Notes: generated by a model not told the origin, from the sequence alone. 32,000 nucleotides of DNA from Snodgrassella alvi (GCF_002777425.1 NZ_MDVC01000059.1:7802-39801); one strand, 5' to 3'. Positions 13,751-32,000 are shown, numbered from the stretch's first letter. Numbers and translations are program-made.

Positions 13751-14398
13751 TCACACCTGATTACGTAAATCAGCCATCATACGATTAAATTCTTCACGAA
13801 AAGCAGGAGCAACATAGGGGCGCAACAACGTGAGCGTCTGGTATGTACCGCGAAATTTCGAGGCTTCAGTCAGCTTGCGCTCATACAGAGCATTATCATA
13901 GTCACACCAGTATTTGGTAATCAACCAGATATTAACCGCCAACTCCTTGCGAGCAATTTCATCTGTCTGAATAAACCCGATATTAGTTAGCTGTTGCAAT
14001 AGGTTTTGCAGCAATGGCGACACCTGTATCCGGGTGAAATTATTGTGTTCACCCAGCAGCTCGGCACTGCGCGATAACATCGCATTCAAATCACTAAACA
14101 AAAAACGGTATTTCCACATCACATCATAGACACCAAACATATAATTCTTAATGGCGTCCGTGTCCTGTGGCATTTTGGCCTGTTGCAAATAGCACAACAG
14201 TTCCTCACTGTAGCGCTTGAACAACTGCATAATAATTTCATCTTTATTACGAAAGTGATAATACAGATTGCCCGGACTGATACCCAGATAAGAAGCAATA
14301 TGATTGGTACTGGTATTACGCTCACCCTCTTCATTAAACAACTTCAGACTGGCATCAATAATACGATTATAAGTATTGGGGCGTGATTCTTTCACCAT
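13751..14398 (-). CDS. TetR/AcrR-family transcriptional regulator
   Basis: The N-terminal helix-turn-helix reads RIIDASLKLFNEEGERNTSTNHIASYLGISPGNLYYHFRNKDEI. The track start at 14437 is a TTG. I prefer the ATG at 14398 (MVKESRPN...). Confidence 0.85.
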   Translation of the reverse strand: MVKESRPNTYNRIIDASLKLFNEEGERNTSTNHIASYLGISPGNLYYHFRNKDEIIMQLFKRYSEELLCYLQQAKMPQDTDAIKNYMFGVYDVMWKYRFLFSDLNAMLSRSAELLGEHNNFTRIQVSPLLQNLLQQLTNIGFIQTDEIARKELAVNIWLITKYWCDYDNALYERKLTEASKFRGTYQTLTLLRPYVAPAFREEFNRMMADLRNQV

Positions 14399-14473
14399 AT
14401 TAATTTCTTTCAGATTATGCAGTGTTTTACCGCGCAAATCATACAGATAACATTTTCAGTAACTTGCCATACA

Positions 14474-15523: not shown

Positions 15524-16905
15524 GATTCTCTTTCAGCATGCGCCAGCGCAATTTTTTCACTTTGCCGGTGCAGATACCACACCAGCGCCACAGCCGCACC
15601 CGTTAATGCCAGTACCAACGCCAGCCAGAAACCATACAGCGCCATACCAAAATACAAACCAAATAAACAGCCAAAGCCCAGCCCCAGCCCCCAGAAACTG
15701 AATGCGTGAATCACCATCGGAATCTTGGTCAGCTTGTAGCCACGCAAAGCATACGAAGCAATTGTCTGTGTTGCATCCGATAGCTGGAAAACCGCCGCAA
15801 AAATCAGCAGCGTTCCACCCAGCAGAATCACTTCCTGATCAGCAGTATACAGACCCACCCAGAAATGCCGGAACAACAACAGCATCACCCCGGTGAAACA
15901 GGCGCCTAAAAGCCCCATGCTCAGCCCCACACCCGAAACAAAGCGGGCGCGCTGCCATTTACGCGCACCTACAGCCTGCCCAACACATACCGCCAGCGCA
16001 ATACCCACACTTTGCGGTAACATATAAAGCAGAGAAGTAATACTAATTACCACCTGCTGCGCGGCTACCTGAGTTACCCCGAAACGCGCAATCAGTAAGC
16101 TAATAAAAGTAAACAGGCTCACCTCAAGGAAAAACGACATCCCAATCGGAATACCCAGCCGCAACAGGGAACCCTGCAAGCGCCAGCGAGGCCAGTCAAA
16201 GCGCGCAAACAGTGCAAATGGTGCGAAATAGCGCTGGCGAAACACATAGATACCCAACACAATTGCATTAAACCAGAAACAGATAGCCGAAGCCAGGCCA
16301 CAGCCCGCCCCGCCCAGCTCCGGCATCCCATACTTACCATAAACAAAAACATAATTCAGCGGAATATTCAGCAACAGCGCAATCAGGCTCACCACCATAA
16401 TCGGTTTCGGGCGGTTTAAAGACGAAGCAAAGGCATAAAAAGCCCGATGAATCATCGCTGCCGGCATACCCAGCGCAATAAAGAACACAAACTGGCCAAA
16501 CACACCATTTACATACGTACCCATATTCAGCCAGCGCTGCATCGGCACGATCAGCGCCCACAACAGCAGCATACCCAGCACGCCCAGAAACAGCCCGAAC
16601 CACAGCCCCTGCCGCCCCTGCTCACCAATTTCCGTGGTTTTTCCGGCGCCATACAACTGCGCCAGTATTGGCTGCAACGCCGTCATCACCCCCAGAAAAG
16701 TAATATACAGAGTAATAAATACATTCGACCCCAAAGCCACCCCGGCCAGATCATTGGCACTGGCATGACCGGCCATCACCGTATCCACCACACCTACACC
16801 CACCTGCGCTGCCTGTGCGACAAGAATCGGCAACGCCAGCCGCAATAACCTGCGGCATTCAGCCAGCAGCTCACCGCGGCCATGCTGATTCAATTCAAAC
16901 AACAT
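15520..16905 (-). CDS. norM: MATE-family multidrug efflux transporter
   Basis: The 461-aa polytopic membrane protein has the N-terminus LLRLALPILVAQAAQVGVGVVDTVMAGHASANDLAGVALGS, which is characteristic of NorM. AGGTGA lies upstream of the ATG. Confidence 0.9.
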   Translation of the reverse strand: MLFELNQHGRGELLAECRRLLRLALPILVAQAAQVGVGVVDTVMAGHASANDLAGVALGSNVFITLYITFLGVMTALQPILAQLYGAGKTTEIGEQGRQGLWFGLFLGVLGMLLLWALIVPMQRWLNMGTYVNGVFGQFVFFIALGMPAAMIHRAFYAFASSLNRPKPIMVVSLIALLLNIPLNYVFVYGKYGMPELGGAGCGLASAICFWFNAIVLGIYVFRQRYFAPFALFARFDWPRWRLQGSLLRLGIPIGMSFFLEVSLFTFISLLIARFGVTQVAAQQVVISITSLLYMLPQSVGIALAVCVGQAVGARKWQRARFVSGVGLSMGLLGACFTGVMLLLFRHFWVGLYTADQEVILLGGTLLIFAAVFQLSDATQTIASYALRGYKLTKIPMVIHAFSFWGLGLGFGCLFGLYFGMALYGFWLALVLALTGAAVALVWYLHRQSEKIALAHAERES

Positions 16906-16997
16906 GTTTCACCTACAAACTTAAACAATACAAACAATAAAAGACGGCAAGCCGTCATAAACATCAGGCAGCGTGATGCCGCATAAATCACAACAAA

Positions 16998-17029
16998 ACA
17001 GGCTGCCTGAAATTCTTCAGACAGCCTGT
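16998..17029 (-). terminator. efp terminator built from an inverted pair of DUS-like 12-mers
   Basis: The arms are acaggctgcctgaa (16998-17011) and ttcagacagcctgt (17016-17029), giving a 14-bp stem with one C.A mismatch and a 4-nt loop. The minus strand continues with ttttgttgtgattt. The structure lies 16 nt after the efp stop codon. Confidence 0.7.
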
Positions 17030-17044
17030 CAGCAAGAAAATCAG

Positions 17045-17605
17045 TTAAGCGCGTTTGCGGAACTCAAAAGTACGTGAATCAATTTCCACCTTATCGCCAT
17101 TTTCAACATAAGCAGCCACCTGAATCTCGGCACCACCTACCAGACGAGCATTCTTCATTACCTTACCAGAAGTATCACCTTTTACCGCCGGCTCAGTGTA
17201 TTCCACTTCACGAACGATAATAGTAGGCAACTCCACAGAAATAGCGCGACCATCATAGAAAGTCACTTCACATTTTTCTTCCATGCCATCCACTATAAAC
17301 TTAATGGCATCACCAATGTTTTCAGCTTCCACTTCATACTGATTGAATTCATCATCCATGAAAACATACATCGGGTCAGCAAAATAGCTGTAAGTACACT
17401 GTTTGCGATCAAGTACTACCACATCAAACTTCTCATCGGCTTTATATACCGTTTCCGTAGCAGCACCCGTCAGCAGATTTTTCAGTTTCATTTTCACCAC
17501 GGCAGCATTACGACCGGATTTATTGTATTCGGACTTCTGCACCACCATTGGATCATTGCCCACCATAAACACATTACCCGGGCGCAATTCTTGTGCGGTT
17601 TTCAT
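17045..17605 (-). CDS. efp: Elongation factor P (Arg32 type)
   Basis: The product [47 protein letters not shown]... is near-identical in pattern to Neisseria EF-P. Arg32 sits in the KSGR loop. The track start at 17623 is a TTG, and the true ATG is at 17605. Confidence 0.95.
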
Positions 17606-17649
17606 CTTTAATCTAACTTCCAAAAATGTTCAGCAAATAGATAAGTACA

Positions 17650-18849
17650 TTATTTTAGCGGAAGATGGCAGAATCTGGCTAGTTTTTCCAACGCACCATC
17701 CTGCGCATGCAGCATTTCAGACCACGCTGCGGCTGCTTTTACCCAATTTTGCCAGTCCGCACACAAATCCTGCCACGCCGCTACACGCCTTAACCCATCC
17801 AGACTGCCTGCCCCATTCAAATCATCCGACAACACCATAAAAGCCGCCCGCAATCCTGCTGGCCAACCTGCCGTAGCCTTGTTCCAGAATGCATGCAGCT
17901 TGTGCAGATGAGCATCATCATCCTGCCGGTAAATATGCCAGAAAAACGGCAACCCAGCCCATAAAGCACGCACAAAACTGTCCTCACCGCGCACAATCGC
18001 CGCATCAGCCAGCCACAGCAAGCGGTCAAAGGCCGCTTGCGGCACAAACGGAATGCGCACCAGCGTCAGCTTACCCACTACCCAGACATCGCCGTCCTGT
18101 TGCAGAGCATCTGGGGGGATTACCTGTTGAGCGCGCAAACTGTCTATCACCTGCCCCCCGGCCAGCCACAGCGTTATCGGCGTATCTGCCTGCTGCCACA
18201 TCGCCATCCATTGCGGCCAGCACACCGAAGCATAGGCAAACACCAGCCACAACTGGCCGCTATGCTGCAACGGCAAACCATACTGCTGCCTGAATGCCTG
18301 CTGTAGCAATGGCTGCTGCAAGAATGCAGCCCGCTCAGCCACATAATCAGCTTCACGCAACAAGCCACCACTGGCCGCATCAATGCCCATAAACCAAAAA
18401 TACTTTTCCAGCCCATTAGCTTGCAACGATGGCATAGCATGTAAATCCACCGCCCAGTCTTCTGCCGTCAGATATTCCCAGTTCAGCCATAATGGCCGGC
18501 ATTCAGTCATGCGTGCCAGCACCGCTGGCGGCAAATCACAGCCAAATGTCTCAATCACCAGCACCGGATCGGCAGCATCAGCCAGTTGCCGTTGCACCAC
18601 AGCCTCATCCTGCCACACTTCCACCATAATCTGCGCCTGATAGCCGGCGCGTTCCGGTACCAGCCTGTCCAGCGCATCCACATCATCAATCCACAAGCGT
18701 ACCCGCAAGCACAAATAATCTGCCAGCAGGCAGCTTAAGCGCCAGCCCACTCCCACATCACCAAAATTATCAATGACCCGCACAAATACCCATGCCTCAG
18801 TGGCCAAACCATCCGGCGATGCACACACAGGCAAATTCAGAGAATGCAT
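17650..18849 (-). CDS. earP: EF-P arginine-32 rhamnosyltransferase EarP (DUF2331)
   Basis: The gene lies immediately upstream of efp on the same strand, with a 44-nt gap. The N-terminal VIDNFGDVGVGWRL motif is typical of EarP. The ATG at 18849 has AAGGAA 7 nt upstream. I judge the track extension to 18948 spurious. Confidence 0.85.
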   Translation of the reverse strand: MHSLNLPVCASPDGLATEAWVFVRVIDNFGDVGVGWRLSCLLADYLCLRVRLWIDDVDALDRLVPERAGYQAQIMVEVWQDEAVVQRQLADAADPVLVIETFGCDLPPAVLARMTECRPLWLNWEYLTAEDWAVDLHAMPSLQANGLEKYFWFMGIDAASGGLLREADYVAERAAFLQQPLLQQAFRQQYGLPLQHSGQLWLVFAYASVCWPQWMAMWQQADTPITLWLAGGQVIDSLRAQQVIPPDALQQDGDVWVVGKLTLVRIPFVPQAAFDRLLWLADAAIVRGEDSFVRALWAGLPFFWHIYRQDDDAHLHKLHAFWNKATAGWPAGLRAAFMVLSDDLNGAGSLDGLRRVAAWQDLCADWQNWVKAAAAWSEMLHAQDGALEKLARFCHLPLK

Positions 18850-18900
18850 AAAAATTTCCTTACCAGCAGCATAACTTAACCCATCACCACCACTACCCGT

Positions 18901-18935
18901 CATTCTGTCAAGAGCAAAACAGACTTGACAGAATG
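18901..18935. repeat. Perfect 12-bp inverted repeat (cattctgtcaag / cttgacagaatg) with 11-nt spacer
   Basis: I read this directly from the sequence. Each arm contains TTGACA on one strand. It sits ~50-85 nt upstream of the earP ATG and abuts a perfect DnaA box. Confidence 0.6.
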
Positions 18936-18938
18936 ATT

Positions 18939-19147
18939 TTATCCACATGAATTAAATTTACAGCACCAAAGCGTGTAAAAAGATGAAACAGACTTACTCC
19001 AGTCTTATATATTTTTAAATATATGTTTTTAAAAGATTTAATTTTCAGGCTTATTTTTTAGGCAAGCACATACAAAGCTTGATTTTCAGGCAATTATCCA
19101 CGCACAACTTTCATTTTCCACAGATTTATCCACAAATATTGTGGGCA
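18939..19147. promoter_or_regulatory. DnaA-box cluster flanking an AT-rich tract
   Basis: TTATCCACA occurs at 18939-18947 (9/9) and TTATCCACg at 19094-19102 (8/9). TTtTCCACA occurs at 19114-19122 (8/9) and TTATCCACA at 19126-19134 (9/9). All four are in the same orientation. A weak inverted box tgtgggcat lies at 19139-19147. The interval ~18985-19060 is almost pure A/T. Confidence 0.6.
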
Positions 19148-19229
19148 TATCTTTAACCCCTTTAACAACAAGGTTTTTTACACCAAATCGTCCTCACAAT
19201 GAAAAATAATCAGAAACCAATGACTGCTA

Positions 19230-19238
19230 TGGTAAAAT
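19230..19238 (+). promoter_or_regulatory. Candidate extended -10 (TGgTAAAAT) for gyrA
   Basis: The element tggtaaaat lies 32 nt upstream of the gyrA ATG. I see no good -35 hexamer. Confidence 0.3.
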
Positions 19239-19269
19239 AAACAATGCTCTCCAAAGTAGTAAAGCCATT

Positions 19270-21873
19270 ATGTCTGATGCACTTTTTGCCAAAGAAACCA
19301 TAACAGTATCTCTTGAAGAAGAAATGCGCCGCTCCTACCTCGATTACGCCATGAGCGTTATCGTAGGACGCGCCCTTCCCGATGTGCGTGATGGCCTGAA
19401 ACCAGTTCATCGCCGTGTACTGTACGCCATGCACGAGCTGAACAACGACTGGAATCGTGCCTACAAAAAATCAGCACGTATTGTCGGCGATGTTATCGGT
19501 AAATACCACCCGCACGGCGACACCGCCGTTTACGACACCATCGTGCGTATGGCACAGGATTTCTCCATGCGCTACATGCTGGTAGACGGACAGGGTAATT
19601 TTGGTTCCGTTGACGGCGACAGCGCCGCAGCCATGCGTTACACCGAAATCCGCATGGCAAAAATTGCGCACGAATTACTGGCCGATATCGATCAGGAAAC
19701 CGTCGACTTCATTCCCAACTACGACGGCAACGAAAGCGAACCAGCCGTACTGCCCACACGGATTCCGGCACTGCTGGTTAACGGTTCTTCCGGTATCGCC
19801 GTTGGCATGGCTACCAATATACCGCCGCACAACATCAACGAAGTGCTTGGCGGCGCCAAAGCCCTGCTGGCTGACGAAAATCTCAGCATTGACGAACTTA
19901 TCGACCTGATTCCGGCACCGGATTTTCCTACCGGCGGCATCATCTATGGCCTCTCCGGCGTGCGCGAAGGCTACCGCACCGGCCGTGGTCGCGTCGTCAT
20001 GCGTGGCAAAACCCACATCGAACCAATCGGCAAACACGACGATCGCGAAGCCATCATCATTGATGAAATCCCGTATCAGGTAAACAAAGCCAGACTGGTC
20101 GAAAAAATTGGTGAGCTCGTACACAGCAAAGTTATCGAAGGTATTTCCGACCTGCGCGACGAATCAGATAAATCCGGCATGCGCGTGGTTATCGAACTCA
20201 AACGCAACGAAAATGCCGAAGTTGTACTCAACCAGCTCTATAAACTAACTCAATTGCAAGACAGCTTCGGTATCAACATGGTGGCACTGGTAGATGGCCA
20301 GCCGCGCCTGCTCAATCTGAAACAGATACTAAATGAATTTTTACGTCATCGCCGCGAAGTCGTTACCCGGCGCACCATGTTTGCTCTACGTAAAGCACGC
20401 GAACGTGGTCATGTACTTGAAGGTTTGGCCGTAGCTCTGTCCAACCTTGACGAGATCATCACCCTGATTAAAACTTCCGCAACACCACCAGAAGCCAAAG
20501 CTGCTTTAACTTCGCGTCCGTGGCGCTCAGGTCTGGTCGCCCAGATGCTTGCCCGCAGCGACATCGATGCTCAACTGGTTAAGCCACAAGATTTACCTGA
20601 AAATACTGGGCTATTTGGCAATGACTACTTCCTCTCCGACGCACAGGCACAGGCCATCCTCGATATGCGTCTGCAACGCCTTACTGGTTTGGAACAAGAT
20701 AAAATCGTTGATGAATACAAAAGCGTCCTCGATATTATCCTTGACCTGCTCGACATTCTGGCCAATCCCGTGCGCATCAACCAGATTATTCATGACGAAC
20801 TGACTGCTATTCAGCAACAGTTTGGTGATGAACGCCGCAGCGAAATTAATGCCTTCGGTGGCGACATTGCCGACGAAGACTTGATCCCGCAGCGCGACAT
20901 GGTTGTTACTCTCACTCATGGCGGCTACATCAAAACTCAGCAGGTAGACGACTATCAGGCACAACGGCGTGGCGGTCGAGGCAAGCAGGCCACTGCCACT
21001 AAAGACGAAGACTTTATCGAAACTCTGTTTATTGCCAACACCCACGACTACCTGCTGTGCTTCACCAGCTTGGGCAAATGTCACTGGATAAAAGTCTACA
21101 AACTGCCCGAAGGTGGCCGCAACAGCCGTGGCCGACCGGTTAACAACCTGATTCAGCTCGAAGAGGGTGAAAAAATCAACACCATCCTGCCAGTACGCGA
21201 ATTCAGCGAAAACGAATACGTCTTCATGTGTACCGAACAGGGCATCGTCAAAAAAACCTCCCTGATCGACTTCTCCCGTCCACGTACTGCCGGCATCATC
21301 GCCCTCGGACTAGACGAAGGCGACCACCTGATAGGCGCCGTAAAAACTGCCGGCAAACACGACATCATGCTGTTTTCCAATGGCGGTAAAGCCGTACGCT
21401 TCAGCGAAGACAACGTCCGTGCAATGGGACGTAGCGCCCGTGGCGTACGCGGCATGAAACTGGCTGAAAACAATCAGGTCATCAGCCTGCTGGCATACGA
21501 TACCGAAGAAGACGGCAACAAACTGGTACTCACCGCCACCGCCAACGGCTTCGGCAAACGCACCGTCGTTGACGATTACCGCCGTTCCGGCCGTGGTACT
21601 CAGGGCGTTATTGCCATCGATACCGGTGAACGCAATGGCGACCTCGTGGCCGCCACCCTCGTGGCCGACAGTGACGACCTCATGCTGATTACCAGCGGTG
21701 GCGTACTGATTCGCACCAAAGTCGAACAGATACGCGCCACCGGCCGCGCCGCGGCCGGCGTAAAACTCATCAATCTTGATGAAGGCGAAAAACTGGTTAG
21801 TCTGGAACGCATTGCCGAACCAGAAGAAAACAGCAACACCGAAGTAGATGTACTGGATACCCCGGAAAATTAA
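19270..21873 (+). CDS. gyrA: DNA gyrase subunit A
   Basis: The 867-aa product contains [39 protein letters not shown]. It also contains the QRDR segment [20 protein letters not shown], the active-site AAAMRYTE, and a C-terminal beta-pinwheel. It is collinear with Neisseria GyrA from memory. Confidence 0.97.
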
Positions 21874-21889
21874 ATCCAGCAGCGAAATA

Positions 21890-21922
21890 AATAAAGCCGA
21901 CTTTGCCAGTCGGCTTTATTCT
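21890..21922 (+). terminator. Rho-independent terminator of gyrA
   Basis: The stem pairs aaagccgac (21893-21901) with gtcggcttt (21909-21917) and is followed by a T-rich run (attctt). Confidence 0.7.
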
Positions 21923-21964
21923 TATCCAAGCAAACACATCCTTAGCCATACACCACTTGATAAC

Positions 21965-21983
21965 AATAATGAAATCTATTATC
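21965..21983 (+). promoter_or_regulatory. Candidate Fur box upstream of bfd
   Basis: The sequence aataatgaaatctattatc matches GATAATGATAATCATTATC at 14 of 19 positions (counted by hand). It lies 44 nt upstream of the bfd ATG. Confidence 0.45.
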
Positions 21984-22026
21984 ATCTTCATTCGCAAAAA
22001 CAAACCACATCCACAAAGGAAAAATC

Positions 22027-22224
22027 ATGTACGTTTGTCTGTGCAATGCCATCACCGATCGCCAGATAAAAGAAACCGTAGCCGCCGGCGCTTCCAGCCT
22101 CACCGACTTGCAGGCGCAGCTTGGTGTAGCCACCTGTTGCGGCTGCTGTGCCGATTTGGCCAGCTCATACCTGTCATCTCGCCACGACAACCTAACCAGT
22201 TGCACCAAAGCCGATAACAAATAA
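22027..22224 (+). CDS. bfd: Bacterioferritin-associated ferredoxin ([2Fe-2S] BFD-like)
   Basis: The 65-aa product starts MYVCLCNAITDRQIKE and contains the ...TCCGCC cysteine pattern. AAGGAA lies upstream of the ATG. Confidence 0.85.
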   Translation: MYVCLCNAITDRQIKETVAAGASSLTDLQAQLGVATCCGCCADLASSYLSSRHDNLTSCTKADNK

Positions 22225-22350
22225 GCATCTGATAATCTGCCACACATTTAAATTACTTAAATTTCTCAGAATAACCAGAATACAAAACCCATATCAATTA
22301 CAAAAAAACAACATATAAACTTACATACACACATGTAAAACAAACATAAA

Positions 22351-22380
22351 TTGATATAAAAACCCAATTCATCACATAAT
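22351..22380 (+). promoter_or_regulatory. Candidate sigma70-type promoter for rhs (TTGATA-18-CATAAT)
   Basis: These hexamers were read from the sequence in the A-rich 262-bp bfd-rhs spacer. A 7-bp inverted repeat ctgccaa/ttggcag (22406-22427) lies between them and the RBS. Confidence 0.25.
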
Positions 22381-22486
22381 ATAACCTCAAACAAACCATT
22401 AACACCTGCCAACTTAACCATTGGCAGCTAATCAAACAAACTTTCGAATTTAGAAACTGATATTTTGAGCAAAAAGGGGTTTTGCT

Positions 22487-25400
22487 ATGGGAGAAGCTTA
22501 TTGGGCTGCTCGAAAAGGAGACAAACTTCTACACACCTCCATCTGGGCTGATATCGCAGGTGCCGCAGTAGAACTCGCCTGCTATGGCGCAATCGGCCTT
22601 ATCCCCGGTGGCCTCATCGTTACCACCCTTGTTAGCGTAGCTGTTTCTGTTACCGGACTTAATGACGTCATATCAGACTTATCTGAAAGTGTCAGCGACT
22701 TATTCCCCATGGTCGAAGATGGCGAAATCATGTCAGGTTCAGCCAACACCCATATCAACGGCAAACCAGCAGCCCGCGCTGCCGGTACCGTAGACCAAAG
22801 TATTCAGCTCAGTGACGGCAGTGAAGAACCACAACAGCCTGAAAGCTTTATCGATATGGCCAAAGGCATGCTGGATGGTGCATGGGAGAGCATCAAACAG
22901 CTTCCCCAGCAAATCGTCAGACCCACCGTAGCCGCACCAGACCCTCGGGCAGTACCCAAAGATAACGACAAAATCACTTGTGCCAAGCATCCACATCTAC
23001 CCGGCACATATGAATACATGGCCGAAGGTTCCAGCAAAGTCTACATCAACGGCCAGCCTGCCGTACGCAGCAACGACCGCAGCACCTGCGAAGCCAAAGT
23101 TACCGATAACTGCGAAGGTGGTGTCAGAGTTTCCAACAACGTGCGCATCGGCGGTGAACCCATCGTCGTGCGCGAGATCCGAAGTGGTAAACACCCCATT
23201 GGGCTGGCAATTTCCGTATTTTCACTAATATTTAACCGTAAAAAACTTTGCACTCAATTTGGCTGTTTTGGACTGGGATTTATGCGAGATGCCGCTATTG
23301 GCTATATCGCCGGTAAAGCAGCAGATGCCATAAAAAAAGGGTTCCCCGTTCACCTGCCCACTGGCGCCAAACTCCTTGCTGGCGCCGAAGAGCTCGACTT
23401 CTCTGTCCCCGCTCATTTTCCCATCGAATGGCAACGCTTCTACAGCAGCGTCGACACCCGTACCCACAACATATTTGGTGCCGGCTGGAGCGTCCCCTAT
23501 GAAGTAGAAATGGAAATTTCCCCGCAGCCAGACGGTTCCTGTACTGCCGTCTACATCGACGAACAAGGGCGGCGCATCGAAATCGAAGCCATGCAGCCGG
23601 GCGAAGGCATCCGCGGCTTCAACGAAAACCTCAGCATCCGCCGCGGTGAACAGAATCGCTGGGTCATCGAAGACGACGACGGCATCTACCGCCTGTTCGA
23701 ACCCGATCCCAACCAGCCCAACCGTCTCTACCTCACCGTACTGCAAGACCGCAACGACAACAAGCACCTGATCTCCCGTGATACCCACAGTCGCATCATC
23801 GAAATAGCCAACGAAACCAACACCACCCGCATCACCTTACACTATCAGGACAAACGCCACCCCCAGCGCGTCACACACATCAAAAGAGAACTAGCCGATG
23901 GCAGCAGCCAGCTACTGAACCAGTACCACTACAGCGAACAGGGCGACCTGCAACAAGTCATCGATGCAGAAAATCGCACCACCAGAGAATTTGCCTACGA
24001 CAACGGCCGGCGCATGACTTACCACCGCCTGCCTACCGGCCTACAGTGTTATTACCAGTGGCAGCACTTCGACGGAGCAGTAGAAACCGCATGGCGCGTC
24101 ATCCATCACTGGAGCGAAGCCGACGGCAAACGACTAGAAGACTATCACTTCCAGTATGATCTCGAACAACGCCTCACCACCGTCCACGACAGCATCGGCC
24201 GCAGCAGCAAACACTACTGGAACGAAGTCTACCAAATCACCCGTTATATCGACCCCCTCGGCCAGACTACCGAATTTGAGTGGAACGAAGACCAGCAACT
24301 GGTCAGCGTCACCGATCCGCAAGGTGGGAAGTGGCGCTACAGCTACGACGAACAGGGACGCGAAACCGCAGAAACCGACCCCCTCGGCCGTACCACACAA
24401 ACCCAGTGGCTGCCGCACTGGGCTTTACCCACCATCAGCGTTGACCCCGATGGCAGCATCTGGCGTTACTACTACGACCAGCGCGGTAACCTGCGCAGCG
24501 TTATCGACCCCCACAAACAGCGTACCCACTACCAGTACGACCAGCATGGCCAGATAGTTCAGATCACCGATGCCCGCGGTGGCAACAAATACCTGCGCTG
24601 GAACCAGAACGGCCAGCTGACCCAACATGTCGACTGCTCCGGTACCGCCACCCACCTCTATTACGATGCATCAGGCAATCTCAGCAGCATCTCCGACGCC
24701 CAGTGTAACAGCAGCAAATACCACTACAACGCTGCCGGCCAGCTTACCGGCGTTACCTTAACCGACGGCAGACAGGAACACTATCGCGTCAACAGTGCCG
24801 GCCAGCTACTGACCTATACCGATCCCGCCGGCCACAGCACCCACTACCAGCGCGACCCGCGCGGACTGGTGCATACCCGCATCGATGCTGCCGGACGCAA
24901 ACTCGGCTTTAACTACGACGCCTATGGCCGCCTCAATACCCTCACCAACGAAAACGGCGAACACTACCAGTTTCAATACGATGCCGCCGACCGCTTAATC
25001 GAACAGACCGATCTGGACGGGCGTAAACAGAGATACAGCTACGATACACTGGATAACGTCAGCGCCGTGCACTTTGCTGCCGGCAGCAGTGCCGAAATCA
25101 TCCACCGCTTTAAACGCGATGCCATCGGCCGCCTGATCGGCAAATATACCACCGACGGCAACACCGCCTACCAGTACGATAAAGCCGACAACCTTATCAA
25201 AGTCGGCTACAAAAAAGCCGGCCTGCCCGCAGAAGCTGAACCCGATATCATCACTTTCAGCTACGACCAACTGGGTAATCTGCTGAGCGAAACCACCGCA
25301 CAGGGTACCCTCAGCCACCAGTACGACCCACTGGGCAACCGCATCGCCACTACTCTGCCGGATGGGCGCACCATCAACAGCCTCTATTACGGCTCCGGCC

Positions 25401-26845
25401 ACCTGCACCAGATAAATATCGACGGCCACATCATCAGCGATATCGAACGCGACAACCTGCACCGCGAAGTATTACGCACCCAAGGACGCCTGAACACCCA
25501 GTTCAAATACGACCGCAACAGCCGTCTGCAACGCAAACAGATACAGCGCAATCAGAATCCCATCCTGCCCGATATCCTCATCGAACGCAGCTACCAGTAC
25601 GACAACCTCGACCGGCTGGTAAGCAAAAAGCACAGCAAACACGGGCAGACCGATTACTACTATGATCGCACCGGCAGAATCGAAGGCTGCCGCAACCAGA
25701 GATACTGGGAAACTCTGCAATACGATGCGGCCGCTAACCTGCTGGACAGCAAATACCGAGAAGACTACAGCAACTACAACCTGATTCGCTGTAACCAGCT
25801 CCTGCATTTCAGAGGGCACCACTACCGCTACGACGAGCACGGCAGAACCCAGACCAAACAGACCATTGGTGCTACCCAGCACTATCATTACGATGCCGAA
25901 CACCGTCTGAGCGAAGTACGCATCGAACAAACAGGCCGCAGTCAGCGTTACGGCTATGTTTATGACGCCTTAGGCCGGCGTATTGAAAAGCATCAAATAG
26001 ACCGCGAGGGTCAACCCTACAACCGTACCCGCTTCCTGTGGGACGGCTTAAGAATGATTCAGGAAACCGGCCCAAATCACCCCACCAGTCTGTATATCTA
26101 TACCGACCAGAACAGCTACGAACCACTGGCGCGGATAGACACAGACGGCAACCAAGAACAACATATCCGCTACTTCCACACCGACCTGAACGGCTGTCCG
26201 GAAGAACTGACCGACGAAAACGGCGAATTACTGTGGGAATGTAGCTTTCAGTTATGGGGAAAGCGGATTCATGAAATCGGACACGAATCAGTAGAACAAA
26301 ACCTCAGATATCAGGGACAATATTTAGACAGAGAAACCGGCTTACATTACAATACTTTCAGGTATTATGATCCGGATATAGGTAGATTTACTCAGCCAGA
26401 TCCGATTGGTTTAGCTGGTGGTTTGAATCTGTATCAGTATGCGCCTAATGGGTTGACTTGGATTGATCCGTGGGGCTTATGGACATACTATACAATGCCA
26501 GGTATTGATGGCTTCCAAAAACACCATATTATTCCGCAGCAATTAAAAAATCACGCTTTGCTTAAAGAGGCTGGCATGAATATTCATTCGATAAAAAACA
26601 TTATTTATCTCCCTAGATCGGCTGATGCGCATCCTACCAGAACTATTCATAAAGGTTCGCACCCTGAATATACTAAGATAACAAAACGTGAAATGGATCA
26701 TCTATTAGAACAAGGAAAAATAAATAAATGGACACAAAAAGAATATAAAGACGCTTTAAGAAAATTAATCCGAGAGCAAAGAGCTAATTTACGTAGTGGT
26801 AAAACCATTTTAAACAAAAATTCAATTAGATCTAAAGGATGCTGA
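22487..26845 (+). CDS. rhs: Rhs-family polymorphic toxin: prePAAR motif + TM helices + PAAR + YD-repeat cage + DPWGL + AHH-type nuclease tip
   Basis: The 1452-aa product has an ATG start with AAAGGGG upstream. AARKGDKLLH occupies aa 7-16, followed by a hydrophobic region at aa ~20-58. PAAR strands include GSANTHINGKPAARAAG and GSSKVYINGQPAVRSNDRSTC. Dozens of YD-type repeats are present (YxYDxxGR/N). The core ends PNGLTWIDPWGL (DPWGL at 26465-26479). The tip contains KHHIIPQ...IYLP...HKGSHPEY. Confidence 0.95.
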   Translation: MGEAYWAARKGDKLLHTSIWADIAGAAVELACYGAIGLIPGGLIVTTLVSVAVSVTGLNDVISDLSESVSDLFPMVEDGEIMSGSANTHINGKPAARAAGTVDQSIQLSDGSEEPQQPESFIDMAKGMLDGAWESIKQLPQQIVRPTVAAPDPRAVPKDNDKITCAKHPHLPGTYEYMAEGSSKVYINGQPAVRSNDRSTCEAKVTDNCEGGVRVSNNVRIGGEPIVVREIRSGKHPIGLAISVFSLIFNRKKLCTQFGCFGLGFMRDAAIGYIAGKAADAIKKGFPVHLPTGAKLLAGAEELDFSVPAHFPIEWQRFYSSVDTRTHNIFGAGWSVPYEVEMEISPQPDGSCTAVYIDEQGRRIEIEAMQPGEGIRGFNENLSIRRGEQNRWVIEDDDGIYRLFEPDPNQPNRLYLTVLQDRNDNKHLISRDTHSRIIEIANETNTTRITLHYQDKRHPQRVTHIKRELADGSSQLLNQYHYSEQGDLQQVIDAENRTTREFAYDNGRRMTYHRLPTGLQCYYQWQHFDGAVETAWRVIHHWSEADGKRLEDYHFQYDLEQRLTTVHDSIGRSSKHYWNEVYQITRYIDPLGQTTEFEWNEDQQLVSVTDPQGGKWRYSYDEQGRETAETDPLGRTTQTQWLPHWALPTISVDPDGSIWRYYYDQRGNLRSVIDPHKQRTHYQYDQHGQIVQITDARGGNKYLRWNQNGQLTQHVDCSGTATHLYYDASGNLSSISDAQCNSSKYHYNAAGQLTGVTLTDGRQEHYRVNSAGQLLTYTDPAGHSTHYQRDPRGLVHTRIDAAGRKLGFNYDAYGRLNTLTNENGEHYQFQYDAADRLIEQTDLDGRKQRYSYDTLDNVSAVHFAAGSSAEIIHRFKRDAIGRLIGKYTTDGNTAYQYDKADNLIKVGYKKAGLPAEAEPDIITFSYDQLGNLLSETTAQGTLSHQYDPLGNRIATTLPDGRTINSLYYGSGHLHQINIDGHIISDIERDNLHREVLRTQGRLNTQFKYDRNSRLQRKQIQRNQNPILPDILIERSYQYDNLDRLVSKKHSKHGQTDYYYDRTGRIEGCRNQRYWETLQYDAAANLLDSKYREDYSNYNLIRCNQLLHFRGHHYRYDEHGRTQTKQTIGATQHYHYDAEHRLSEVRIEQTGRSQRYGYVYDALGRRIEKHQIDREGQPYNRTRFLWDGLRMIQETGPNHPTSLYIYTDQNSYEPLARIDTDGNQEQHIRYFHTDLNGCPEELTDENGELLWECSFQLWGKRIHEIGHESVEQNLRYQGQYLDRETGLHYNTFRYYDPDIGRFTQPDPIGLAGGLNLYQYAPNGLTWIDPWGLWTYYTMPGIDGFQKHHIIPQQLKNHALLKEAGMNIHSIKNIIYLPRSADAHPTRTIHKGSHPEYTKITKREMDHLLEQGKINKWTQKEYKDALRKLIREQRANLRSGKTILNKNSIRSKGC
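25598..26479 (+). repeat. Rhs core 3' segment, master copy of the repeat shared with the orphan cassettes
   Basis: This segment aligns by eye with 28342-29229 and 30040-30917. Its last 150 bp (26330-26479) also aligns with 27405-27554. Confidence 0.9.
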
Positions 26846-26846
26846 T

Positions 26847-27392
26847 ATGGTATACGAACTAAAAATATCTGATAATTATTCTGATAGTTATTGGTTTGAA
26901 TATGAACAAAGTGAGTTTTCTAATATTGATTTGATTCAAGGCAAGAAAATAAGACTCGATAATCCTTTAAATTTTGAACTAAAAAAGAAGGTAAGTGAGA
27001 AGAAGTTACTATCTTTTGATTATTTTTTGAGTGATGGTCCTGATTTTATCTCACCCAGACTCGCAACCCTACTTGCAGATAATAAAGATTTTTTAAAAGA
27101 TGTTCAATTGCTTGATGCAAATGTGGTTATTAATGGTAAAAACTATTCTGGCTTTAAGGTATTAAATATTCTTCGTATGCTATCATGTATAGATATGGAT
27201 AAATCTGATAGTGTACCAATATTAGATCATTTGCCTGATGGACCAAAAAGATTTACTCAGATTGTCTTTAGGAATGATGTGATAGAAGATTTTTATATGG
27301 CGAGATGCCTAGAATATAAATATTGTGTTGTAATTTCAGAGAAATTAAGACAATTATTTATTGAAAATAATGTCAAAGGTATAGAATTATAA
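26847..27392 (+). CDS. Cognate immunity protein of the AHH tip (Imm11/DUF1629-like)
   Basis: The gene starts 1 nt after the rhs TGA, with AGGA 8 nt upstream. It is AT-rich like the toxin tip. The DFISPRLATLL...V..LDANVVING..Y.GF.VLNI....CIDMDKSD and ISEKLRQLF..N.V.G pattern resembles my recollection of Imm11, but this is unverified. Confidence 0.7.
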   Translation: MVYELKISDNYSDSYWFEYEQSEFSNIDLIQGKKIRLDNPLNFELKKKVSEKKLLSFDYFLSDGPDFISPRLATLLADNKDFLKDVQLLDANVVINGKNYSGFKVLNILRMLSCIDMDKSDSVPILDHLPDGPKRFTQIVFRNDVIEDFYMARCLEYKYCVVISEKLRQLFIENNVKGIEL

Positions 27393-27404
27393 CTATAATG
27401 AACT

Positions 27405-27554
27405 AGAAAAACCGGCTTACATTACAATACTTTCAGGTATTATGATCCGGATATAGGTAGATTTACCCAGCCAGACCTGATTGGGCTGCTGGGTGGGTTT
27501 AATCTGTATCAGTATGCGCCTAATGGGTTAACTTGGGTGGATCCTTTAGGATTG
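27405..27554 (+). repeat. 150-bp rhs core-end homology heading orphan cassette 1
   Basis: The segment encodes (R)KTGLHYNTFRYYDPDIGRFTQPDLIGLLGGFNLYQYAPNGLTWVDPLGL. It is collinear with 26330-26479. Confidence 0.9.
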
Positions 27555-27944
27555 AATGCTTTTGATGTTGGTAGTTATATTGATCTAAGGAATAAGGTCA
27601 AAGGTCGTAATACTGGATTAGATGCTCACCATGTAGGACAAAAAGCAATTATGCAAAATCTTGTAAAAGGATATGATCCTAAAACAGCTCCAGCTATTTT
27701 AGTTCCCGAAGCTGGACATAGGTTCCTTAAAGATGAAGTTGGAATTGTTGCACGTAGTAAAATTAACTCTAGAACAGGAAAACCATTTAGTAGCGCTAGA
27801 GAGTTATTAGCTAGAGATATACGTGAGTTAAGAAGAGTTTACCCACAAATACCCAATAGCGCTCTTCAGAAATTAATTACCAAAAATAAAGAAATGTATC
27901 CAGAGATGAGAAAACCGAAACCTAATGGAAAAAGAGGTTGTTAA
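27537..27944 (+). CDS. Orphan rhs-CT 1: toxin domain of unrecognised family with DAHH motif
   Basis: The frame is open from 27402, but the only start-like codon is the GTG at 27537, which is the Val of VDPLGL. The toxin part (27555-27941) reads NAFDVGSYIDLRNKVKGRNTGLDAHHVGQKAIM...AILVPEAGHRF.... It is AT-rich. Confidence 0.65.
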   Translation: MDPLGLNAFDVGSYIDLRNKVKGRNTGLDAHHVGQKAIMQNLVKGYDPKTAPAILVPEAGHRFLKDEVGIVARSKINSRTGKPFSSARELLARDIRELRRVYPQIPNSALQKLITKNKEMYPEMRKPKPNGKRGC

Positions 27945-28310
27945 ATGAATAAAATAGGAAAAGATGAATTAGTAGTTACCTCACTTTTATCTATACTTTT
28001 GGATGATACACTTGAATATTATAAAACTCATTTAAGTGATCCGAGTAAATCCACAAACGACAATGATCCTTATGCAAGAGCAAGAAGTATTATCACAAAG
28101 CTATCAGATAAAGACCAAGAAAAGATTTTTAATTTTCTGCGTATAGTAATAGTAGATACAATGTCAACGATTTTTGGAACCATAGATGGTTCATGTTTTC
28201 CTCTAAATATTAGTGGTGATTTCATTCTTGAGTATGATGGAGATGAAATACAAGGTTCATTGCAAGATGAGTTAATTGCAAAAGCAGAAGAGATTGGTGT
28301 CTATGATTAA
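27945..28310 (+). CDS. Putative immunity protein of orphan 1
   Basis: The ATG lies directly after the toxin TAA, with AAAGAGG 7 nt upstream. The 121-aa product is acidic. I recognise no family. The call rests on position and composition. Confidence 0.6.
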   Translation: MNKIGKDELVVTSLLSILLDDTLEYYKTHLSDPSKSTNDNDPYARARSIITKLSDKDQEKIFNFLRIVIVDTMSTIFGTIDGSCFPLNISGDFILEYDGDEIQGSLQDELIAKAEEIGVYD

Positions 28311-28341
28311 TGAATTAATCATTAAAAGTAAAAATTTTTTT

Positions 28342-29586
28342 TACGACACCCCCGACCGGCTGGTAAGCAAAAAACACAGCAAACACGGGTAGACCGATTA
28401 CCGCTATGATCGCACCGGCAGAATCGAAGGCTGCCGCAACCAGAGATACTGGGAAACTCTGCAATACGATGCCGCCGCCAACCTGTTAGACCACAGACGG
28501 CCAATAGAATTAGACCCTAGCAATCAGAATGTCATCCGCTGTAACCAGCTCCTGAATTTCAGAGAACACCACTACAGCTACGACGAGCACGGCAGAACTC
28601 AGACCAAACAGAGCATCGGCGCTACGCAGCACTACCACTATGATGCCGACCACCGCCTGAGCGAAGTACGCATCGAACAAACAGGCCGCAGCCAGCGTTA
28701 TGGCTATGTCTACGATGCTCTTGGCCGGCGTATCGAAAAGCATCAGATAGACCGCGACGGCCAACCTTACAATCGTACCCGCTTCCTGTGGGACGGCTTA
28801 AGAATGATTCAGGAAACCGGCCCGAATCATCCCACCAGCCTGTATATCTATACCGATCAGAACAGCTACGAACCACTGGCACGTATAGACACAGACGGCA
28901 ACCAAGAACAACATATCCGCTACTTCCACACCGACCTGAATGGCTGTCCGGAAGAGCTTACCGATGCAAACGGTAAAATACTTTGGGAATGCAGCTTTCA
29001 GTTATGGGGAAAGCGGATTCATGAAATCGAACACGAATCAATAGAGCAAAACCTCAGATATCAGGGACAATATTTAGACAGAGAAACCGGCTTACATTAC
29101 AATACTTTCAGGTACTATGATCCGGATATAGGTAGATTTACCCAGCCAGACCCGATTGGTTTGGCTGGCGGATTGAATCTGTACCAGTATGCGCCTAATG
29201 GGTTGACTTGGATTGTTCCGTGGGGGTGGGCATGTATACCAAACAAAAAAGCAGGTATGAAGCGTGAACAGAGGGCAAAAGATATATTGGAAAAGCGTTA
29301 TGGCAAGAAAAATGTTTTAAGTGAACGTTATTTAAGAGATAATAAGGGTAAATCAGTTAAAGACCCTTTAACAGGTGAACGACGTAGAATCGATTTTGTA
29401 GTTAAAGGGCAAGATGGGAAATGGAGGCCTGTTGAGGTCACGAGTCGAACCGGTGCTTTAAATAAAGGACCACAGATAGCGAAAGAAGAAAGAATCCGTG
29501 AAGCTGGGGGAGTTTTTGTGAAAAATAAAAATACCGGTCAATTAATACAATTAGATGATGTATCAACTGTTATTGGAGTAAAGTAA
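28342..29586 (+). pseudogene. Orphan rhs-CT 2: ~888 bp of core homology with in-frame TAG, altered DPxGL, PD-(D/E)xK-like toxin tip
   Basis: The segment is collinear with rhs 25598-26479. A TAG at 28390-28392 replaces the CAG (Gln) of the master copy. There is no ATG/GTG/TTG in frame until 28804, which is the track ORF 28804..29586. The core ends WIVPWGW (29215-29229) instead of DPWGL. The tip contains GMKREQRA...RRIDFVVKG...WRPVEVTS. Confidence 0.75.
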
Positions 29587-29927
29587 TGAGCAAAATTGAT
29601 TTTACCTTACATAATATTCCATTATTGCTTACAAGAAATAAAAGTAAGCAATGGCAAGAGGATATTATTCAAAGTTCAACAGCCTTATTAAACTTTTTAA
29701 AAAATAATGAATTATTAATTGGTATTGAGCCTTTTGATGATGCAGGAAAATTAAAAACTGATACTGTTATTAAGATGTCAAATGTTACTCAAGAAGGTTT
29801 AGAATTATTCAAAACTACTGTAGATGAATGGTATAAATATCTCGCTAAAAGTACAGTTCCCGATAAGTATAAAAATATAAGTCGCCTAGAAAAAGGTTTA
29901 GCTAAAATTCGAAAAACTAAAAGTTAA
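29586..29927 (+). CDS. Putative immunity protein of orphan 2
   Basis: The ATG overlaps the toxin TAA by 1 nt (TAATG). The 113-aa gene is AT-rich. I recognise no family. Confidence 0.6.
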   Translation: MSKIDFTLHNIPLLLTRNKSKQWQEDIIQSSTALLNFLKNNELLIGIEPFDDAGKLKTDTVIKMSNVTQEGLELFKTTVDEWYKYLAKSTVPDKYKNISRLEKGLAKIRKTKS

Positions 29928-30039
29928 TTAAAAAATGAAAGTCTATGGTCATGGACATATAAAAGCTGATGCTCCAATAGGATAATTATATGTATTAGCT
30001 CAAACGCTAATGATTAGCATAATTCTTAATGTAACAACT

Positions 30040-30917
30040 TCGACCATCTGGTAAACAAAAAGCACAGCAAACACGGCCAGACCGATTACCGCTATGATCA
30101 CACCGGCAGAATCGAAGGCTGTCGCAATCAGAGATACTGGGAAACCCTGCAATATGATGCTGCTGCTAACCTATTAGACCACAGACGGCCAATAGAATTA
30201 GACCCTAGCAATCAGAATATCATCCGCTGTAACCAGCTCCTGAATTTCAGAGAACACCACTACAGCTACGACGAGCACGGCAGAACCCAAACCAAACAGA
30301 GCATCGGCGCCACCCAGCACTACCACTACGACGCTGAACACCGCCTGAGCGAAGTACGCATCGAACAACTAAACCGCAGCCAGCGTTACGGCTACGTCTA
30401 CGACGCCTTAGGCCGGCGTATCGAAAAGCATCAGATAGACCGTGACGGCCAACCCTACAACCGTACCCGCTTCCTGTGGGACGGCTTAAGAATGATTCAG
30501 GAAACCGGCCCGAATCACCCCACCAGCCTGTATATCTATACCGACCAGAACAGCTACGAACCACTGGCACGCATAGACACAGACAGCAACCATGAACAAC
30601 ATATCCGCTACTTCCACACCGACCTGAACGGCTGTCCAGAAGAGTTGACCGATGCAAACGGTAAAATACTTTGGGAATGCAGCTTTCAGTTATGGGGTAA
30701 ACGGATTCATGAAATTGAACACGAACCCATAGAGCAGAATCTCAGATATCAGGGACAATATTTAGACAGAGAAACCGGCTTACATTACAATACTTTCAGG
30801 TACTATGATCCGGATATAGGTAGATTTACCCAGCCCGACCCGATTGGTTTAGCTGGTGGTTTGAATCTGTATCAGTATGCGCCGAATGGGTTGACTTGGG
30901 TGGATCCTTTGGGACTT
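30040..30917 (+). repeat. ~878-bp rhs core homology heading orphan cassette 3
   Basis: The segment is collinear with 25608-26479 and with 28352-29229. The frame is open from 30030. Confidence 0.9.
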
Positions 30918-31313
30918 GCAACAAGACCAAATAATGGTAAATACAATATATTTTTTGATCATTCTGTTGACCCAACCAATAGATACTCAAGTGATGCCGT
31001 TCAATTTAACAGAGCAAATAAAGAATTCATCAAAAAAATGAATGAGGATGCTGTTTTTAGGAAAGATATGCTTAAAAGATATCCAGAACTTTCTAATTGG
31101 ATGAAAAACGGAAAGAAAAATATAAGTCCACCAGGGTTAACATGGCATCACCATGAAGATACAAATAGACTTGTTTTGGTCGATAGAAAAGATCATAATA
31201 AAAACTACGCTTTATATCATCCTTCTGGAAAAGGTGGGCGTGATATATGGGGTGGAGGTACTCAAGGGCGAAAAGGAAAGTTAAATGGCTTTACTGGTAA
31301 GAAACTGTGTTAA
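30492..31313 (+). CDS. Orphan rhs-CT 3: core fragment + DPLGL + WHH-family HNH/EndoVII nuclease tip
   Basis: The reading frame is uninterrupted from 30030, but the first start codon is the internal Met at 30492 (LRMIQETG). DPLGL lies at 30903-30917. The tip contains GLTWHHHEDTNRLVLVDRKDHNKN..HPSGKGG..WGGG (WHHH at 31143-31154). Confidence 0.75.
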   Translation: MIQETGPNHPTSLYIYTDQNSYEPLARIDTDSNHEQHIRYFHTDLNGCPEELTDANGKILWECSFQLWGKRIHEIEHEPIEQNLRYQGQYLDRETGLHYNTFRYYDPDIGRFTQPDPIGLAGGLNLYQYAPNGLTWVDPLGLATRPNNGKYNIFFDHSVDPTNRYSSDAVQFNRANKEFIKKMNEDAVFRKDMLKRYPELSNWMKNGKKNISPPGLTWHHHEDTNRLVLVDRKDHNKNYALYHPSGKGGRDIWGGGTQGRKGKLNGFTGKKLC

Positions 31314-31339
31314 ATTTTTTATTACGGAGTATGAATACT

Positions 31340-31678
31340 ATGCTTGTTAAAGGTAATCTTTATCCAATAAAGGATATTATTTCTTATGTGAAAGGCAATA
31401 TTGAAAGAGGTGATGACTTTTGTATATATGGTGAATCAGATGAAGACTTGTTAAGTAATAAAAGTTATTATATTGATGACTATCCAGATGTAGATGATAA
31501 TGGAAAAGAAATTTATCCACCTCATGCGTTAAAAAAGAAACTAAACTATCTTTATTCTGGTCAGCAATTTGCTGATGTAATAGATTCAGTTATAGATCAA
31601 AAACCGTTAGCTACTACAGATGAATTTATAAAAGCTTTAAATTATTACTCTGAATATGATAATTTTTTAGATCTCTAA
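31340..31678 (+). CDS. Putative immunity protein of orphan 3
   Basis: The track start at 31307 is a GTG overlapping the toxin end. In-frame ATGs occur at 31331 and 31340, and GGAG at 31326-31329 favours 31340. The product is acidic and its gene is AT-rich. I recognise no family. Confidence 0.6.
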   Translation: MLVKGNLYPIKDIISYVKGNIERGDDFCIYGESDEDLLSNKSYYIDDYPDVDDNGKEIYPPHALKKKLNYLYSGQQFADVIDSVIDQKPLATTDEFIKALNYYSEYDNFLDL

Positions 31679-31763
31679 ATTTTTGCAATTATAATATAAG
31701 TTGTAGTAGTCTTTATTTAATCTGACATTTAGTGTATTTTAAACCAACAATGGAGTGTCAGTA

Positions 31764-32000
31764 ATGAATCAATCTGCAAAAATAATTAAACCTAAATTAG
31801 GACTTTTAGAACTCGCTAAACAGTTAGGTAACGTTCAGCAAGCCTGTAAAGTCTTGGGGTATAGTCGCGACAGCTATTATCGCTTCAAAAAACTCTATGA
31901 ACAGGGCGGAGAATTAGCTCTTCAGGAAATAAGTCGCAAAAAACCTATAGAGAAAAATCGCGTAGAGCCTCATATTGAGCAGGCTGTAGTTAATATGGCT
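31764..32000 (+). mobile_element. IS transposase, N-terminal HTH part (IS481-family-like); continues past the right edge
   Basis: The ATG at 31764 has GGAG 9 nt upstream. The product reads [61 protein letters not shown].... This resembles the HTH N-termini of IS481-type DDE transposases from memory. It is absent from the ORF track because it is open to the edge. Confidence 0.6.

Follow-up and report, generated by a model that had tools for sequence, protein, structure and literature searches.

A probable C-terminal-displacement array of toxin tips and putative immunity genes behind a PAAR-Rhs gene in Snodgrassella alvi

For the rhs genes of enterobacteria, a C-terminal displacement model was proposed by Jackson 2009 (PMC2935791), in which the conserved core and the toxin tip are decoupled, dissociated tips lie downstream and tips are acquired laterally across taxa. 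In Salmonella Typhimurium LT2, an immunity-linked orphan rhs C-terminal region (rhs-CT) that lacks initiation and export signals was experimentally observed to recombine with the main gene, which fuses the orphan tip onto it (Koskiniemi 2014, PMC3967940). The closest parallels to our case come from Rhs loci in Snodgrassella alvi wkB2 and further bee-gut isolates (PMC5727410, PMC8125069), where a 5' PAAR-Rhs gene and its immunity gene are followed by truncated, orphaned toxin domains with immunity genes. The same layout is found in the 32,000-nucleotide (nt) stretch of S. alvi DNA analysed here (GCF_002777425.1 NZ_MDVC01000059.1:7802-39801; hereafter the window): a full-length rhs gene, called the master, with its tip and putative immunity gene immM, and behind it three orphans, each with a tip and a putative immunity gene of its own (Table 1). 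In our opinion, held with a probability of about 0.87, this locus is a C-terminal-displacement array of a PAAR-Rhs polymorphic toxin of type VI secretion system (T6SS) type, in a Snodgrassella-alvi-like bee-gut bacterium. The array architecture is already known in S. alvi, and by the defining traits that can be tested from sequence the window appears to hold an orphan rhs-CT/immunity array.

An earlier note on this DNA had described four tandem copies of the rhs core 3' end, each followed by a distinct AT-rich tip and a tightly coupled small open reading frame (ORF), with no start codon at the 5' end of the orphan homology blocks. Self-BLAST and alignment returned the copies within 6 nt of the coordinates given there; guanine-plus-cytosine (GC) content, self-BLAST and ORF spacing bore out the tips and small ORFs, and reading of the frames the missing starts. 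Only the word 'nested' was wrong, since the cassettes stand in series. The master core end matches orphan 2 with 90.1% identity over 886 nt (25598-26475 against 28342-29225, E=0), orphan 3 with 88.4% (25602-26475 against 30034-30913) and orphan 1 with 90.8% (26330-26469 against 27405-27544, E 3e-50), and the closest pair among the copies is that of the orphan 2 and orphan 3 cores (92.7%). The pairwise alignment that the note had proposed places all copies in direct orientation and collinear with the core, the sole indel being 6 nt at base level. The repeats are real and far beyond chance. The final codon of the DPxG(L/W) demarcation motif closes each block (26479, 27554, 29229, 30917), and beyond it the four tips are mutually unrelated, with no similarity in self-BLAST and with different Pfam families or none. 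The core fragments differ at a synonymous divergence (dS) of 0.31-0.44 with omega 0.10-0.14 and have no frameshifts, and therefore they have probably diverged as parts of working genes and not as duplicates in place. GC content is 52-58% in the core and 25-39% in each tip and small ORF. It is already about 41-43% in the final ~250 nt of each core block (26200-26479, 28950-29229 and 30640-30917); this suggests that the final ~250 nt travel with the tips and not with the GC-richer core.

Table 1. Features of the rhs array and its edges in the window (positions counted from the first letter of the window)
Feature	Position	Strand	Basis
Left edge of the strain-variable rhs island and AT-rich (27-30% GC) leader/promoter region of the master	22242-22486	+	Collinearity with L094/L095, GC profile
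Master rhs, 1452 amino acids (aa)	22487-26845	+	Translation; Pfam matches
Master core 3' end, reference copy of the repeat	25598-26479	+	Self-BLAST, alignment
Crossover interval relative to GCA_002777465.1 (left, its master; right, its orphan AHH copy)	26426-26465	+	Three-way alignment, identity profiles
AHH (HNH/EndoVII) nuclease tip of the master	26480-26842	+	Pfam AHH
immM, putative immunity gene for the AHH tip, 181 aa	26847-27392	+	Weak Imm11/Imm43 matches
Orphan 1: core fragment 27405-27554 (150 nt) and tip 1 27555-27941	27402-27944	+	Self-BLAST, frames
imm1, putative immunity gene for tip 1, 121 aa	27945-28310	+	ATG directly after the orphan 1 stop (0 nt)
Orphan 2: core fragment 28342-29229 and tip 2 29230-29583	28342-29586	+	Self-BLAST, frames, Pfam
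imm2, putative immunity gene for tip 2, 113 aa	29586-29927	+	ATG overlaps the orphan 2 stop by 1 nt
Orphan 3: core fragment 30034-30917 and tip 3 30918-31310, 427-codon open frame	30030-31313	+	Self-BLAST, Pfam
imm3, putative immunity gene for the WHH tip, 115 aa, DUF7716	31331-31678	+	Pfam DUF7716 2e-12
Start of an IS481-family element; transposase ORF from 31764, running off the window	31703-32000	+	NCBIfam transpos_IS481 4.4e-13, HTH_29

The break left by recombination at the core repeat is seen by comparison with GCA_002777465.1 (contigs L078/L096/L100), which carries the same locus and shows 0 mismatches and 0 gaps over the 14,435 nt of window positions 12027-26461. Past about 26461, its master bears another AHH tip (AHH_a), 70-94% identical along the tip to that of the window (AHH_b). 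There follow the immunity gene of AHH_a and an extra cassette made up of ~270 nt of core, a tip and an Imm9-type gene. A 62-nt core fragment then leads to AHH_b, from which point the downstream copy (AHH_b, immM, orphan 1, imm1 and orphan 2 core) is 100% identical to window positions ~26426-28976. The same AHH_b and immM, without a single difference, hold the master position in the window and an orphan position in GCA_002777465.1. What separates the two arrangements is a 2.2-kb block bounded by the core repeat; moreover, after ~29000 the orphan 2 core of GCA_002777465.1 runs into yet another tip. Single cassettes have counterparts of 95-100% identity in other strains and in Gilliamella, and sequence comparison marks the cassettes as mobile units shared among strains and genera.

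The master is recognised by Pfam as RHS_repeat PF05593 (4.5e-74, 11 stretches), RHS core PF03527 (7e-12, also matched in orphans 2 and 3), DUF6531 and PAAR. The PAAR match is PF05488 at 1.2e-12, and the NCBIfam model T6SS_PAAR_dom gives 1.1e-08, below the model cut-off. In the translation, a prePAAR motif, AARKGDKLLH, can be read at residues 8-17, followed by hydrophobic stretches, and an eag (DUF1795) chaperone gene adjoining the master was not found despite this motif. The demarcation motif WIDPWGL precedes the AHH tip, whose Pfam match has E values of 5.6e-19 and 1.4e-20. The gene immM starts 1 nt after the master stop, with a Shine-Dalgarno (SD)-like sequence of -5.4 kcal/mol. Its exact protein occurs in 4 other contexts, and is found behind core fragments of 62 nt, of ~370 aa and of at least 391 aa, as well as between two insertion sequence (IS) copies.

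The orphans are start-less by comparison. Each open frame is immediately preceded by a stop codon, and one has to go 45-155 codons in to reach the first in-frame start. The frame of orphan 1 opens at 27402 right after TGA, with GTG 27537 and TTG 27552 as first candidates, and that of orphan 3 opens at 30030 after TAA. The first ATG codons of orphans 2 (28804) and 3 (30492) are the same Met codon (LRMIQE) as master position 26054.

Orphan 2 is a damaged cassette. Its frame is open from core to tip over 28393-29583, behind a nonsense change (CAG to TAG) at 28390-92, and a private GAT to GTT change at 29215-17 replaces D by V, so that the self-cleavage motif reads WIVPWGW. The other tip 2 copies with an in-frame core end, including one on a full-length 1604-aa PAAR-Rhs protein, read DPWGW, and DPxG[LWF] is kept in 174 of the 177 core ends of related loci. 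The sequence PxxxxDPxG(W/L/F) is the C-terminal self-cleavage site of Rhs proteins, with a catalytic Asp; the substitutions D1338N in P. laumondii Rhs1 and D1346N in P. protegens RhsA abolished cleavage and toxicity (PMC8636562, PMC8765631). Downstream of the altered codon only 9 nt of homology remain, and therefore almost any fusion of the master with tip 2 would inherit the lesion, which makes orphan 2 a probable decaying relic with an intact and very widespread immunity gene, not a usable spare. Tip 2 itself gives a weak, sub-threshold NERD / PD-(D/E)xK-like signal and would act as a toxin. Its family has 521 representatives, always C-terminal, on 1577-1604-aa Rhs proteins and on carriers of 2.3-4.8 thousand aa. 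The exact imm2 protein is indexed in 326 blocks of the collection, and the gene is 99.4% identical at the DNA level in Gilliamella sp. N-G2 (L024). In eight loci and again in Gilliamella sp. N-G2, on a contig with flanks of 31% GC, tip 2, imm2, the 106-nt spacer and the next core fragment recur together at 96-99% identity.

Orphans 1 and 3 keep their demarcation motif (WVDPLGL in both) intact. In orphan 1, the first DPxGL motif (27473-27478, PDLIGL) reads DLIGL for DPIGL, a P to L change found, besides the window, only in the near-clonal strain and in L103. In L103 the same 150-nt fragment is joined to an AHH tip and not to tip 1. A crossover downstream of this change could remove it. Tip 1, a putative toxin, is a widespread polymorphic-toxin C-terminal domain with 97 relatives and invariant HH...GH residues, found also behind RHS, PT-HINT and PT-TG pretoxin modules and, elsewhere, on Rhs fragments of at least 557 and at least 637 aa. 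No Pfam, PDB-sequence or PDB-fold match was obtained for it, though its AlphaFold model is confident (predicted local distance difference test, pLDDT, 85). The gene imm1 has an SD-like sequence of -7.0 kcal/mol, its exact protein occurs on 9 contigs, each time behind tip 1, and tip 1, imm1 and a 31-nt spacer recur in S. alvi Nev4-2 and eight further contigs. Tip 3 is a WHH / colicin-DNase HNH nuclease by Pfam. The gene imm3 lies 17 nt behind the orphan 3 stop, and the exact protein is found on 18 contigs, each time 18 nt behind a WHH ORF. We rejected the idea that tip 3 is an orphan-only family (74 relatives, all of 78-229 aa), because the same word-index search, which under-samples long carriers, gave at most 231 aa for tip 1, though tip 1 sits on the long fragments just mentioned.

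The mechanism that we propose is the following. The full-length gene alone has a start codon, a secretion end with PAAR/prePAAR and a complete shell, and each downstream unit would be a former or imported 3' end, formed by a truncated core with its own tip and immunity gene. The core pieces, ~90% identical, would recombine in a RecA-type manner and so change the tip on the master: cassettes in between are lost, or new ones come in and the old tip is pushed downstream. The immunity genes stay intact and would most likely be expressed, through transcription reading on from the master promoter, from internal promoters or from both; the putative immunity proteins would protect against sister cells and neighbours firing those toxins, presumably by T6SS. 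The earlier note had offered two options, cassettes that can be swapped onto the master and displaced relics. Both agree with the published model and with the break at the core repeat in GCA_002777465.1; the swapping option does not extend to orphan 2, which its D to V change has disabled.

All four immunity ORFs are intact, with identical proteins in 4, 9, 18 and more than 24 other contigs, and all stand in SD-like contexts coupled to the tip stops. No convincing terminator on the + strand was found within the array, and therefore read-through from the master promoter is plausible. Internal promoters were considered as candidates and not accepted: consensus matches are present, and the region is not significantly enriched in them (29 against 20.1 +/- 5.0 expected). 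A promoter-like TAGACA-N17-TACAAT site occurs in each long core end (26325-26353, 29075-29103 and 30763-30791). These sites lie inside the conserved coding stretch LDRETGLHYNT, ~150 nt upstream of the tip, and are indistinguishable from coding constraint. In S. alvi wkB2 the orphans are not all silenced, since many of them have transcripts, the tips show toxicity in E. coli, and several immunity genes are essential or needed in vivo (Steele 2017, PMC5727410). Given these data, we think that the label 'silent', which the earlier note had given to the orphans, is doubtful in S. alvi.

Several points weigh against reading the locus as a displacement array. The window is not a simple deletion derivative of GCA_002777465.1, because it reads ATT at 26462-64 where both copies of that strain read GTG. 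The event could have gone either way, as a deletion or replacement in the window lineage or as an insertion in the other strain; an insertion displacing AHH_b and a replacement or deletion placing AHH_b on the master are both predicted by the displacement model. Orphan 2 would give an uncleavable fusion, so that not every cassette would be a usable spare, and no vgrG, hcp, eag or T6SS structural gene was found in the window. Moreover, GCA_002777465.1 was drafted from short reads and its contig stops within the array, with some misassembly possible. One could go further and ascribe all differences between the two strains to collapsed or chimeric repeats, which would leave the locus without direct evidence of recombination, and the identical stretch at the junction is indeed only ~36 nt long, while the absence of single-nucleotide differences over 14.4 kb could mean that both are the same strain. 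This is very unlikely in our judgement, because the junction of ATT with AHH_b, present in neither copy of GCA_002777465.1, is contiguous and 100% identical in two independent contigs (the metagenome contig L102 from 25776 and L101 from 26297 onward); in addition, AHH_a and AHH_b, at their level of identity, should assemble apart, and cassette contexts vary across many independent assemblies. A local tandem duplication of the master 3' end, with tips that diverged afterwards, would account for the single orientation of all copies and for two long blocks starting at most 4 nt apart in core coordinates. It would not account for tips of unrelated protein families, for the dS between blocks while the near-clonal flanks are unchanged, for the close identity of the cassettes to those of other strains and Gilliamella, or for the truncation points of 86 fragments, scattered over 1.6 kb, and we regard it as extremely unlikely.

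The two remaining alternatives concern what the orphans do. They might be expressed independently from signals in the conserved core end, each non-secreted toxin fragment forming with its immunity protein a toxin-antitoxin (addiction) pair that stabilises the island. The wkB2 results on transcription, toxicity in E. coli and essential or fitness-relevant immunity genes (Steele 2017, PMC5727410) would fit such pairs, as would the in-frame ATG codons of orphans 2 and 3, with an SD-like sequence of -6.4 kcal/mol, the hexamers of each long core end (26325, 29075, 30763) and the annotation of such ORFs by gene callers in other assemblies. However, the same ATG and hexamers are ordinary coding sequence in the master core and are therefore not specific signals, the promoter-like sites lack the significant enrichment that was looked for, and ahead of residue 84 orphan 1 offers in frame only GTG or TTG and no ATG. 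Besides, the orphan products would be undeliverable because PAAR and most of the shell are lacking, and fire from sister cells explains essential immunity genes equally well, so we think that this explanation is rather unlikely. A little less so is the view of the toxin fragments as decaying junk in an acquired immunity island, for which recombination onto the master would be irrelevant. It draws on orphan 2, where a nonsense codon and a substituted catalytic Asp stand beside an intact and very widespread imm2, on the P to L change of orphan 1, and on G. apicola genomes that encode orphan toxin domains only, for which defence via the linked immunity genes was suggested (Steele 2021, PMC8125069). 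Against it, tips, frames and cleavage motifs are intact in orphans 1 and 3, with orphan 3 open over its whole 427 codons; the same tip is found in master and orphan positions in the window and GCA_002777465.1; and the re-activation of an orphan was shown by experiment in Salmonella (Koskiniemi 2014, PMC3967940). We consider the junk view doubtful as a general account, and the displacement array remains our preferred reading.

If the displacement reading is right, this natural near-identical pair shows the change of an Rhs toxin repertoire through recombination at the conserved core, as a clean textbook example. It shows as well that cassettes move between bee-gut bacteria of different classes, and that immunity genes can persist in spare cassettes disabled at the self-cleavage site. 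The locus may be useful for annotating similar loci and for choosing strains in which to measure switching rates; it opens no new question. A bolder idea, to which we give little credence, is that the array is a fast toxin-switching device and not a slowly accumulating graveyard. There are two array differences from a strain whose compared DNA, about 17 kb, shows not a single point change, and because of this contrast rearrangement at core repeats might outrun mutation by orders of magnitude. If that were true, a clonal gut population would keep throwing off cells that fire a different toxin and are immune to all, and polymorphic toxins would have their own analogue of the pilE/pilS cassette variation known from the related Neisseria.

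The array lies in a region of housekeeping genes, with an amino-acid permease, thiG, pta, murB, a MATE pump, efp, earP, gyrA and bfd upstream, and bfd (Fer2_BFD) alone between gyrA and rhs. Two assemblies (L094 and L095) have no rhs at the gyrA-bfd site and are collinear with the window only to 22241, 17 nt past the bfd stop. Because this site is empty there, the array is a strain-variable island with its left edge at ~22242. With bfd as anchor, three other assemblies carry rhs at this site, and an arrangement with AHH_b on a gyrA-bfd-linked master is not on record. Searches for the exact master protein and for the orphan 3 ORF found neither on record, and E. coli gave no match. The ORF 21903-22217 has no Pfam match. 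Further upstream, a 471-aa ORF (10702-12117, minus strand) keeps its position in related strains and has no Pfam match at E<=1e-5, and a 44-nt imperfect palindrome (86%) at 10540-10583, just 3' of that ORF, is probably a terminator. At the other end, the IS481 element adjoins the array and follows imm3 at a distance of 24 nt. In six related contigs collinearity with the window stops at 31702, and for this reason the element is taken to end or interrupt the array; related contigs go on there with another Rhs fragment. The array may continue beyond the window, and the element may be the 'integrase-like gene' noted near Rhs loci by Steele 2017.

Some observations on fragment starts and tip ends can be added. 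Orphans 2 (28342) and 3 (30034) begin within the 4 nt mentioned above behind unrelated spacers, and a Gilliamella bombi fragment (L017) begins at the equivalent of 25599, 1 nt off the start points of these orphans. A truncation hotspot at ~25600 was ruled out by the starts of 86 distinct fragments, which are spread over 24816-26423, and a seeming third junction was discarded too, as the fragments concerned reach further upstream. In S. alvi Nev4-2 (L018/L004, MEIR01000089.1), 12 consecutive core fragments of ~270-800 nt stand within the 15.7-kb stretch L018. Unrelated tips of the window close on a terminal Cys behind a basic/Gly stretch (SKGC* at 26831-26845, KRGC* at 27930-27944 and KKLC* at 31299-31313), where the K/R-G codons double as the SD sequence of the immunity gene. 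Tips in L078 end likewise (NKWC*, RGRC*), and the terminal Cys is found in 26 of the 74 WHH family members, across genera. Recombination-stimulating or RNA elements were also considered and rejected: the window has no G-quadruplex (G4) motif anywhere, no Rfam family and no tRNA, and its single 12-mer resembling a DNA uptake sequence (DUS) lies far from the array.

Among known systems, the enterobacterial rhs tip arrays (Jackson 2009, PMC2935791) share with the window the decoupling of core and tip, the dissociated downstream tips and the lateral acquisition across taxa. They differ in that the host of the window is a betaproteobacterium; a circular intermediate was not observed, and S. alvi arrays can be far longer. 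In Salmonella LT2 the main-orphan fusion is as proposed here for the window, and the orphan is likewise start-less and immunity-linked, with one orphan and an event seen by experiment there, against three orphans and an event that strain comparison points to in the window. Immunity genes are likewise kept, presumably against kin, in the orphan immunity arrays that T6SS effector displacement leaves in Vibrio cholerae (Kirchberger 2017, as cited in PMC8125069) and, after toxin loss, among the acquired immunity genes of gut Bacteroidales, a defensive strategy compared in Steele 2021 (PMC8125069). As these are presented in that later paper, they keep mostly immunity genes, whereas the window also keeps complete tips and core pieces. 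For the cassette variation of Neisseria pilE/pilS, the G-quadruplex initiator has no counterpart in the window. Start-less tip/immunity cassettes behind a full-length toxin gene, with short shared upstream homology, are also known as orphan cdiA-CT/cdiI and as Neisseria mafB-CT/mafI. These differ from Rhs in delivery (CdiA two-partner secretion; MafB) and in their demarcation motifs (VENN, DWVKN). The Rhs loci found in S. alvi wkB2 and other bee-gut isolates (PMC5727410, PMC8125069) are nearest to the window, as they belong to the same organism group and the same core family, the master core end having 87-94% aa identity to copies of S. alvi Nev4-2 and Gilliamella spp. Common to both, too, are tips of HNH type, cassettes shared with Gilliamella and an integrase/transposase-like gene close by. 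What sets the window apart from them is AHH_b on a gyrA-bfd-linked master and the private inactivating changes of orphan 2.

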